A DNA stretch of 63,459 nucleotides, filler included, from Bipalium vagum (taxonomy: Eukaryota): the NCBI GenBank assembly GCA_037834085.1. It is 3 parts of 3 records of this genome, joined end to end, with 100 filler letters (N's around TTAATTAATTAA, not from the genome) between each part and the next. Parts side by side here need not be neighbours in the genome. Positions count along the whole stretch, not along the records: positions 1 to 19,919 come from JBBMKC010264388.1; 2 more parts are not named here. One strand, given 5' to 3'. The position numbers and the translations under genes are program-made. Of this stretch, positions 2,130-3,760 are shown piece after piece. Every line of letters begins with the position of its first letter. Position 1 is the stretch's first letter. The notes beneath the pieces were generated by a model. It was not told where the DNA came from. It saw only the letters and a list, made by a program, of their open reading frames with translations, and did not search any database.

Positions 2130-3760
2130 TATTATAAAAATTTCATTTGTCCATTTTGCTGTGTATCCTTTTTCAATTTTTTATATTTAAAAATTCTTAC
2201 ATGATCTCCAATATGAAATTTAGGTTTAAATTTCAAAATTTCAGAAGTTGAAATGGAAACTTTGTGCATCCTTGGCGCTAGAGTCGTAGGCTCATTTCCG
2301 AGAGGTTCACGTGTATTTTCTTCTTTTTCATTATTTTTATTTTTAGCTTTTCATGGTGATTACTCGCTTCCAGCGGTGTCATACCAATTGATGAATGAAT
2401 TTTGTTATTATAAAATTTAATGAATTGAGGTAATAAATGTAACCATTTACGATATCCCTGTTCAGTAAATTTTTTAGAGTTCTATTAAATCTTTCAATGA
2501 CAACTGCTTTTCCCTCATTCTCTGTTGAGTAAATTTTGATCTCATTATCATCACAAAAATCTTCAAATGTTTTATTATAAAATTCTGTTCCTTTATCAAC
2601 CCAAAGTTTTTCTGGTTTTCTATTAGAATCTTCAAATATTTTATGGAAAGCATATGTAATAGATTGTTCTGAATTATTTTTTAAAGGAACAGCAAAAGCA
2701 AGACGAGTATATAAATCTATAACTGTTAGGTTTATTTTATAATCTCTTTCTCCGGGGACAAATGTTAAATCTTCAGACCAAATATCATCTTTGTTATTTA
2801 ATTTTACTTGTAGAAAATTTTTTGGTTTTCGAAATTCTTTGTGAAGTTCGTTTGCTAATTGCTTACTTTTTTCAGGAGGTAAAATTTTAGGATTTTCGAA
2901 AAGGTTTTCATTTGTGAGAGTCTTTGAAGATCTTTCTAATCTTAATCCTAATTCTAAAGCTATCTTTCCTTTGGGAATCGGCAGAGCCGCTCCAACAGCA
3001 ATTTTTTCTCGCATAATTAATTTTACAATTGCTCTTTCAAGCTTTTCTCTTGGAGTTGGATTTTGAATATTATTCATTTCATGAATCATTTCAACATCTG
3101 CAACATGTCTATCTTTTAAATCTGTTGACATATATTTTACATCATGTTTCATTGCTGCTTGATCAACTCGATTTATTGGAATTGAATCTGGTTTTGGAAT
3201 TGGGAGAATTGATAAATCTTGATTGTCTTCATAATTTTCTAATATTTCTTCATAGTTTTCTAAACGTTTATCAACATGAGTTCCAGGCAGAACATCTTGA
3301 ATATTTCTACTCAAGCTGGACTATATCTTAAGCTATCATTGAAATTGATTAGATTTCTCAAGCCCACCTCCGTTTAGTCTCTGAACCTTCTCCATATTCT
3401 TATCACAATTAAAATAGGAGCTTGGCTGCGGATTGTCCAATTCTTGTTCGTTATTACTTTCGAGATCAGTCATTACCTGAGATCCTTCAAAAGATTTCTC
3501 AATTGAAGTAGTAGAACAAGACTCTAAAGAGTTTCCCGCAATTTAGAGGTGTTGCATTTTTTAAGTTTAAAAAAACACTAGCAGACTTCTATGAAAATTC
3601 CACTCGAGCCCAATTGACCCGTCAAATTGTGAACTGGATTTGTTTTGCTTAAAGGATTTAAAATGATGTTCTCCGGGATATTAACCAGTTGTAAATTTGT
3701 TTAAAAACTTATTATTTGTTATTGCTGATTGAATGTCTCCTCCTGTTTTTATAAAAAAGA
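2130..3760 (-). pseudogene. Polinton PLA2 (parvovirus VP1u-like) fused to retroviral-type DDE integrase, interrupted by a group I intron
   Basis: ORF 2379..3314 joins PGTHVDKRL...PINRVDQAAMKHDVKY (PLA2 HDxxY) to DDIWSEDL, VIDLYTR, LWVDKGTEF and VVIERFNRTLK. The C-terminal KFHIGDHVRIFKY/KGYTAKWT part is frameshifted. The upstream exon (GGDIQSAITNNKFL..NPVHNLTG) has a stop at 3681-3683 and a frameshift. The listed ORF start lies inside the intron. Confidence 0.9.
3288..3616 (-). ncRNA. Group I self-splicing intron (IC1-like), 329 nt, no internal ORF
   Basis: Minus strand, in canonical order: P AAATTGCGGGAAAC (3544-3531), Q AATCCGCAGC (3434-3425), R GTTCAGAGACTAAA (3386-3373), S AAGATATAGTCC (3329-3318). 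P3 CACCTC/GAGGTG, P7 GACTA/TAGTC, P9 CTTGAGTA-GAAA-TATTCAAG. The 5' exon ends in U (3617), the intron ends in G (3288), and removal restores T-G-P-G-T-H. Confidence 0.95.

Follow-up and report, generated by a model that had tools for sequence, protein, structure and literature searches.

A group I intron in the PLA2-integrase gene of a Polinton-like element, probably in an animal genome

A group I intron of 329 bases, in a short form without an endonuclease gene, interrupts a PLA2-integrase gene in the window, by which we mean the whole 63,459-nucleotide stretch of DNA that was analysed, and it was confirmed as a genuine feature of that gene. The Rfam covariance model RF00028 matches positions 3297-3592 (-) with 98.8 bits (cut-off 50; E 2.4e-24), and an Rfam scan of the whole window gave no other match at the gathering score and nothing else notable at E 0.5. 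The ends of the intron were set by tblastn with P0001, an intact relative of 449 residues: residue 48 lies at 3617 and residue 49 at 3287, and because these residues flank the intron directly, the insertion between Gly and Pro is clean. The last codons of exon 1, ACG GGT, end at 3617, exon 2 starts at 3287, and the last base of the intron is a G (G3288). A preliminary description had proposed a group I intron at 3275..3640; the score and the codon-exact ends (3616-3288) bear this out.

The intron is predicted, from its sequence, to splice itself as RNA. Its length is not a multiple of three, the read-through frame hits a stop inside it, and its sole 68-codon frame has no match in Pfam or PHROG. 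Spliceosomal removal was considered separately and ruled out by the intron ends, which are CA and TG. The window is AT-rich eukaryotic DNA, with a GC content of 20-33%.

The interrupted gene joins a parvovirus-type PLA2 domain (PF08398) in frame to an rve integrase (PF00665). In the intron copy, PF00665 is matched at E 1e-11 and PF08398 at E 9e-4, below its cut-off; PF08398 scores above the cut-off in 14 of the 16 relatives scanned, and the PLA2 assignment is also backed by Atlas features and by structure. Both domains were found in P0001, P0002, and at least 6 of the 16 relatives scanned, and the Atlas neighbours are PF08398 clusters, one of them with rve in 51% of its members. The in-frame PLA2-rve fusion is the regular form of the element family (window 2177-3743; P0001, P0002, P0050, P0058, P0092, P0166, P0176, P0186). 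The intron separates the G and the P of the GPG motif, and the conservation earlier claimed for this loop of PLA2 holds: GPG is present in 68 of 72 motif-bearing relatives, among 150 listed. Five copies of the gene lie in the window, and the one that carries the intron comprises the first three features below.

3617..3743 (-), exon 1 of the intron copy, N-terminal part of PLA2 (tblastn, P0001 residues 4-48); broken
3288..3616 (-), group I intron, short form without endonuclease gene
2177..3287 (-), exon 2 of the intron copy, remaining PLA2 and rve integrase (Pfam and tblastn); open to 2379 and broken further on
15658..16992 (-), copy B, intron-less, ACA GGA|CCA at 16858/16857
28764..29070 (+), copy C, intron-less fragment, ACT GGA|CCA at 28818/28819
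38663..39757 (-), copy D, intron-less, nearest to the intron copy, ACT GGA|CCT at 39512/39511
61526..62411 (+), copy E, insertion site deleted (sequence comparison, tblastn)

All five are decayed or broken; the intron copy is dead: its exon 1 contains a stop at 3683 and a frameshift near 3655-3661, and the end of its integrase is broken. In exon 2, copy D is 91% like the intron copy and the other copies are 80-83% like it; in distal exon 1, copy D is 84% alike. The three uninterrupted sites read as previously given, and ACG GGT is indeed found in the intron copy alone among the window copies; the earlier census was right about three intron-less copies and missed the fifth, copy E. With 74-91% likeness in exon 2, the copies are, judged by their sequences, dispersed paralogues rather than the alleles they had been called.

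The host element itself fits a Polinton/Alpha-adintovirus-like type, as far as gene content tells, and two features bear on this.

33454..34794 (+), candidate protein-primed DNA polymerase pieces (PF03175, E 2e-5, 24 bits, cut-off 25.8), adjoining copy D and not the intron copy
673..1212 (-), small genes lying downstream of the intron copy; the copy-D element has them too (37101-37679, 78% alike)

Among the 106 short frames of the window, no Pfam match was found for capsid, protease, or packaging ATPase; the copies are decayed, and a Walker-A-like remnant was seen by eye at 36186-36398. A 190-base inverted pair, 72% alike (29338/41644), could bound the copy-D element, and no terminal inverted repeats were found for the intron copy within the window. 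The flanking genes include three CD20-like frames below the Pfam cut-off, a Mos1-type HTH, an epsilon-like 14-3-3 gene interrupted by short spliceosomal introns, and LIM domains, and we consider the intron-bearing genome probably that of an animal.

Several further observations concern this flanking DNA. The CD20/MS4A-like frames (24198-25001, 27171-27860, and 42525-43169) are intron-less and 52-87% alike, and two of them lie inside an inverted 1.9-kb duplication; a search for protein relatives of these frames returned none. The divergent epsilon-like 14-3-3 gene (56358-57245), besides its short introns, has an acceptor-like site 4 bases ahead of the start codon and has 95-96% matches in metagenome records. 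The stretches 6512-9959, 14277-15059, 23040-23444, and 59476-59871 contain exons of a HIT/DcpS-type gene separated by a mariner-like piece, together with a non-LTR reverse transcriptase, a Mos1-type HTH, and pieces of DDE_1 transposase. Four runs of 44 N, in two pairs, are found at 19920-20019 and 45226-45325, far from the intron.

The intron has a complete group I core (P3-P7 and P4-P6). The helix names below follow the usual naming in the family and the Rfam alignment.

3605..3621 (-), P1: exon bases -5 to -1 (3621-3617) and intron base +1 against the guide 3610-3605; 6/6 pairs
3554..3604 (-), P2 (6/7 pairs) and P2.1 (9/9 pairs)
3365..3551 (-), P3 (7/7 pairs), P4 (6/6), P5 extension with P5a (8/8) and P5b (5/5), P6a (4/4), and P6b (6/6)
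3296..3381 (-), P7 (5/5 pairs), P8 (4/4), J8/7, and P9 (8/8, with a GAAA loop)

P1 has the U-G wobble at the 5' splice site (U3617-G3609) and is also present in the minimum-energy fold, and the guanosine-site pair, G3379-C3319, lies in P7 after a bulged A. The P5 extension of about 109 bases is of the P5abc type as far as P5a and P5b show, and P2.1 pairs as well; both are features of subgroup IC1. A P9.1/P9.2 extension is typical of IC1 as well; it is absent from the window intron, in which just 7 bases separate P9 from the last G, and for this reason the intron was not filed as IC1. The folding z-score of the region, -1.26, is not significant (9 of 100 shuffles were equally good), which is usual for pseudoknotted RNA. 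At P3 (3545-3551 / 3365-3371), most other copies of the intron differ from the window at the adjacent positions 3545 and 3546, and the partner strand pairs with either version.

The pairing of exon 1 with the guide distinguishes the intron copy from its paralogues. From -1 to -5, its P1 pairs are wobble, Watson-Crick, wobble, Watson-Crick, and Watson-Crick, and the proposal that ACG GGT supplies the U at -1 and the pairing with the guide is upheld, as all three uninterrupted copies are unpaired with the guide at -1 and -4. In seven element ORFs, GGT accounts for 11 of 36 Gly codons and ACG for 0 of 46 Thr codons, which sets the match apart from background; the element is poor in CpG (o/e 0.6), however, and CpG decay in old copies by itself lowers the ACG count. 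The match is nonetheless ordinary by itself, because every working group I intron requires it. The changes in ACG GGT are synonymous, as had been described; the intron copy has in addition a private non-synonymous change at -7 (Leu for Phe).

The bases that consistently differ with the intron in the window are -1 and -4 alone, and since P1 needs both, selection on splicing predicts the same exon bases without co-conversion; the matched bases were likely kept because splicing needs them. The 3' flank of the intron copy resembles intron-less copy D, while its 5' flank resembles intron-less copy B except at -1, -4, and -7. A 5' tract longer than 4 bases was examined and rejected: the intron copy, D-like overall, is B-like from -8 to -24, and copy D has a 12-base gap there, so that a plain deletion in D explains the pattern equally well.

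Other copies of the intron are present in public sequencing runs. Twenty runs from 16 studies share words with the region, and six were examined (X1, X2, X3, X5, X6, and X8), with depths not taken as copy numbers. Intron and exon are joined across the 3' junction by contigs of X1, X3, and X5, and across the 5' junction by contigs of the first two; PLA2 junctions of the intron were found in three studies. X2 and X8 contain the intron with just 2-6 exon bases aligned, and X6 has no contigs on 3540-3700. In X5, which is an RNA run only by guess, no spliced joint was seen, and this carries no weight either way. The intron is multi-copy: at 3310, one variant occurs in 50 X1 contigs and 37 X3 contigs. 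It is 92-94% like the window intron in X2 (18 differences and 4 gap letters over 289, the alignment ending at +2 with the last 52 bases of exon 2 unaligned) and X5 (21 letter differences and 12 gap letters over 389), while some X1 intron copies are 9-17% from the window, close to the exon divergence.

In the junction-spanning contigs, where clipping at alignment ends masks nearby variants and biases the counts, exon variants of at least 2% are absent at -1, -2, -3, and -6; two X1 contigs differ at -4 and two at -5 (about 3% of depth in each case), and a single X3 contig differs at -4. The guide positions 3605-3609 vary by 5-14% in X1, as in decaying fossils. The private base at -7 was confirmed in X1, which may be the window's own source, by a 149-base contig with 0 differences over 3590-3700; 27 X1 contigs carry the other base. 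The upstream exon stops aligning at -6 in 9 X1, 6 X3, 1 X8, and 1 X5 intron contigs, a stop that the private -7 base of the window favours, and at -2 in one X8 intron contig. Intron-less copies with ACG GGT, which in number would speak against a link to the intron, are not many: among the 6 intron-less joints listed, 5 have A at -1 and 1, in an X1 contig, has U, and the distant intron-less PLA2 genes have GGT in 2 of 4 cases and ACG in none.

Many copies of the intron hold at least 146-255 extra bases at the loop of P2.1. At the T run 3574-3571, where this extra DNA lies, loose ends precede 3571/3573 in 13 and 7 X1 contigs (median 146 and 31 bases), 9 X3 contigs, and 1 X8 contig (255 bases), further loose ends precede 3576, and one X1 contig and one X8 contig enter the ribozyme from other DNA behind 3574. 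An X2 contig and an X3 contig likewise have 74 and 169 bases of unaligned DNA upstream. The short form in the window looks like the product of a deletion between T runs. The insertion point lies about 140 bases before the Q motif, and the 329 bases of the window copy contain no endonuclease gene; a profile of giant-virus GIY-YIG-type ORFs found nothing in the window (best E 0.09).

Group I introns are known in protein genes of eukaryotic DNA viruses, and the closest relatives found for the window intron came from giant viruses. A core motif search gave at least 120 viral and at least 120 prokaryote loci. Viral introns score up to 163 bits, being 74-76% alike over about 250 bases, and 24 of the 120 viral loci listed have at least 120 bits, while the best prokaryote intron has 59 bits and none of the 120 prokaryote loci listed has at least 120. 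The viral host genes are those for giant-virus capsid, RPB1, RPB2, and VLTF3. The P4-to-Q length, 109 in the window intron, is 100-115 in 48 of 125 motifs. Among giant-virus introns of this length class with enough flank, 6 of 23 hold a related ORF of 265-292 residues with a GIY...YIG-type start, which ends 40-69 bases ahead of the Q motif; GIY-YIG Pfam matches were found in 5 of the 43 flanking ORFs scanned, below or near the cut-off. In other giant-virus introns the frames are of LAGLIDADG or HNH type and lie 3' of the core. The giant-virus origin of the window intron is, by these likenesses, a lead and not a result, because the comparison took in no rDNA intron; a tree of 60 extracted cores, all viral besides the window intron, gives the latter no resolved placement.

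Direct searches for the intron or its gene gave little. In viral contigs, the junction motif had 1 chance match without an Rfam hit, the 3' motif none, and the P7-P3 motif 2 distant introns; three protein queries there returned 0, 0, and 0, and a further one 2 distant PLA2 loci. Metagenome contigs gave 2 more, and the intron is absent from all four. The PLA2-integrase protein had no match in prokaryote genomes, and phage records gave 2 matches that cover 20% of the intron. Among the viral introns, the GIY-YIG-type frame of 265-292 residues extends into the ribozyme core and ends within the P4-P5 region in L027, L038, L045, L059, L071, and L075. L012 and L080 have group I introns in a viral gene that we take, from an N-terminal motif, to be viral Hsp70, and L035, L041, L050, and L081 have two group I cores about 360-880 bases apart.

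The explanation that we favour, with somewhat better than even confidence, is that the intron spread by homing through a long, probably endonuclease-bearing form and that the window copy is a fossil of a short form. A group I intron of giant-virus type would have settled in the GPG motif of a Polinton/adintovirus-like element, probably in an animal genome. An active element would have made PLA2-integrase only once the RNA had spliced itself out, as follows from the length of the intron and its read-through stop; unspliced RNA would stop within the intron and truncate the integrase, and U at -1 and the -4 pair would thus be needed for any intron copy to persist. The extra DNA at P2.1 would be an endonuclease gene whose product cuts intron-less copies, and repair would copy the intron together with at least bases -1 to -4, short co-conversion and selection acting together: recipients with GGA would need -1 to -4 co-converted to survive. 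The short form would have arisen by the deletion between T runs, and the window copy would be its fossil.

Three considerations argue for homing. Copy D is 91% like the intron copy, yet it has neither the intron nor the matched bases, which fits a gain better than a loss. A single gain after the split of these two copies could not yield unlike exon backgrounds without lateral movement. Finally, the extra DNA lies at a loop that endonuclease genes use in the relatives, which makes homing the most likely route. The earlier proposal of homing with co-conversion therefore stands in part: the unlike backgrounds, the intron-less copy D, and the extra DNA at P2.1 are signs of lateral spread, but no neutral marker travels with the intron. 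Also counting against homing are the lack of an endonuclease frame in the window, the X1 intron copies up to 17% apart, as in neutral decay, the help that the private -7 base gives to the alignment stops at -6, the single contigs that stop at -2 (X8), vary at -4 (X3), or have U at -1 without the intron, and the chance that the extra P2.1 DNA is non-coding or another insert.

The same X1 divergence suits a single gain with vertical descent in one element lineage, in which the matched bases would be fixed by splicing selection and the backgrounds would result from divergence and mosaicism. We regard this as rather unlikely, although it accounts for the fact that only P1 positions track the intron, no endonuclease has been read, and ribozyme constraint can hold the intron more alike than a loose exon loop. 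It sits poorly with the closest window copy being intron-less while intron copies occur in backgrounds less than 80% alike, and with a long form at the loop that holds endonuclease genes in relatives.

Of the two routes that had been proposed, reverse splicing is the weaker, and we consider it improbable. It would start from transcripts in which ACG GGT was present beforehand, and reverse transcription and recombination would follow. Such targets would be rare, given the ACG count in Thr codons and the lack of ACG GGT in the three window copies and the four distant genes, and the long form is left unexplained; in its favour are the non-LTR reverse transcriptase in the window and the X1 contig that lacks the intron yet has U at -1. 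This route is discussed for rDNA introns in the available text of PMC3679873, which describes the full pathway as without experimental proof.

Still less probable is an ancestral intron that was lost many times, after which AT bias and CpG decay would have turned the codons, no longer constrained, into ACA/ACT GGA. The step from ACG to ACA is a CpG transition, in keeping with the CpG depletion of the element, and the X1 contig that is intron-less with U at -1 resembles a precise loss; however, A at -1 in all three intron-less window copies and in 5 of the 6 joints listed would need a transversion each time, copy D is too near the intron copy to expect two changes at these sites, and the four distant PLA2 loci all lack the intron. 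An assembly chimera or contaminant (an rDNA or giant-virus piece joined to the element) is very improbable and largely refuted, since the insertion is codon-exact, P1 depends on the exon, and contigs from the runs bridge both junctions, even though the best matches are giant-virus introns and the window has N gaps elsewhere.

Returning to homing, a broader scenario may be offered tentatively, at somewhat less than even confidence: an endonuclease-bearing intron derived from giant viruses may have invaded an adintovirus/Polinton of soil-dwelling bilaterians and may home between lineages, with many chromosomal copies and an integrase dependent on ribozyme splicing of a polymerase II transcript; it would then be a mobile self-splicing intron in a protein-coding gene of animal nuclei. 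The giant-virus (Nucleocytoviricota-type) introns, in contigs L004-L123, share the Q and R motifs, the P4-to-Q length class, and the sequence likeness with the window intron, and several have endonuclease genes, GIY-YIG in the 5' periphery. They differ in host gene and site; the window element is an integrating one, and no RNA polymerase gene was seen in it, so its transcripts are presumably made by host polymerase II.

Group I introns in Polinton-like elements are themselves known from protists. In the available text of PMC12220804, they occur in Polinton-like viruses of Rhodomonas lacustris cluster C3, Paulinella micropora, and Desmodesmus armatus and are restricted to three protist groups. 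Like the window intron, they match RF00028, are of similar size (309-376 bases), and interrupt a protein gene in a Polinton-type element that integrates; in contrast, their hosts are protists, they lie in a short unannotated gene upstream of the capsid gene, and that text contains no mobility analysis, whereas the window offers a PLA2-integrase gene, a probably animal host, copies with and without the intron together, and long and short forms. The PLA2X gene of Alpha adintoviruses and animal Mavericks, as described in the portions available of PMC8502044, provides the other comparison: a parvovirus-type PLA2 and an rve integrase are shared with the window, which has a candidate protein-primed polymerase nearby. 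PLA2X is separate and ends in a pX-like domain, while the window PLA2 is fused to the integrase, and the sole 'intron' mention in those portions concerns another virus group.

The mitochondrial cox1 homing intron of angiosperms, as treated in excerpts of PMC3192709, resembles the present case in its patchy presence, synonymous intron-linked exon changes, and rare intron-less genes that keep the changes. In its co-conversion tract, neutral markers on the 3' side number up to 7 or more, while the window has two 5' bases only, both required by P1, so that here, unlike in cox1, a tract is indistinguishable from selection. The nuclear rDNA group I introns of Tetrahymena type are likewise nuclear, with a P5 extension and P2.1, and may hold endonuclease genes in peripheral P1/P2 segments (PMC3679873, available sections); this likeness is one of description, not of sequence, and the window intron lies in a mobile-element protein gene instead of an rRNA gene and has no P9.1/P9.2.

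In the available parts of reviews, nuclear group I introns are confined to rRNA genes (PMC3679873, PMC10964413) and those of animals to a few lineages outside the bilaterians, mostly in mitochondria, with some records from sharks besides (PMC10964413, PMC11835236). Support for group I intron function in a polymerase II transcript is indirect and cell-type-dependent in the corresponding part of PMC3151216, and the accessible passages of PMC11296320 and PMC10748475 mention group I introns solely in other contexts. The openly available literature that was searched describes no such intron in animal Polintons or in PLA2X. What is new here is the setting of the intron, the PLA2-integrase gene of a Polinton-like element in a probably animal genome; in protist Polinton-like viruses such introns were known already.

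If these readings are true, an integrating animal element with a group I intron in one of its protein genes would break both of the limits drawn in the reviews, to rRNA genes and to non-bilaterian lineages. Such a ribozyme would work in a natural polymerase II message, and introns would pass between giant viruses and animal Polintons. One genome would then hold the whole cycle of invasion and decay of a homing intron, and because its dated fossil copies are many, some intron-less and others with the intron in its long or its short form, co-conversion and selection would become directly testable against each other.
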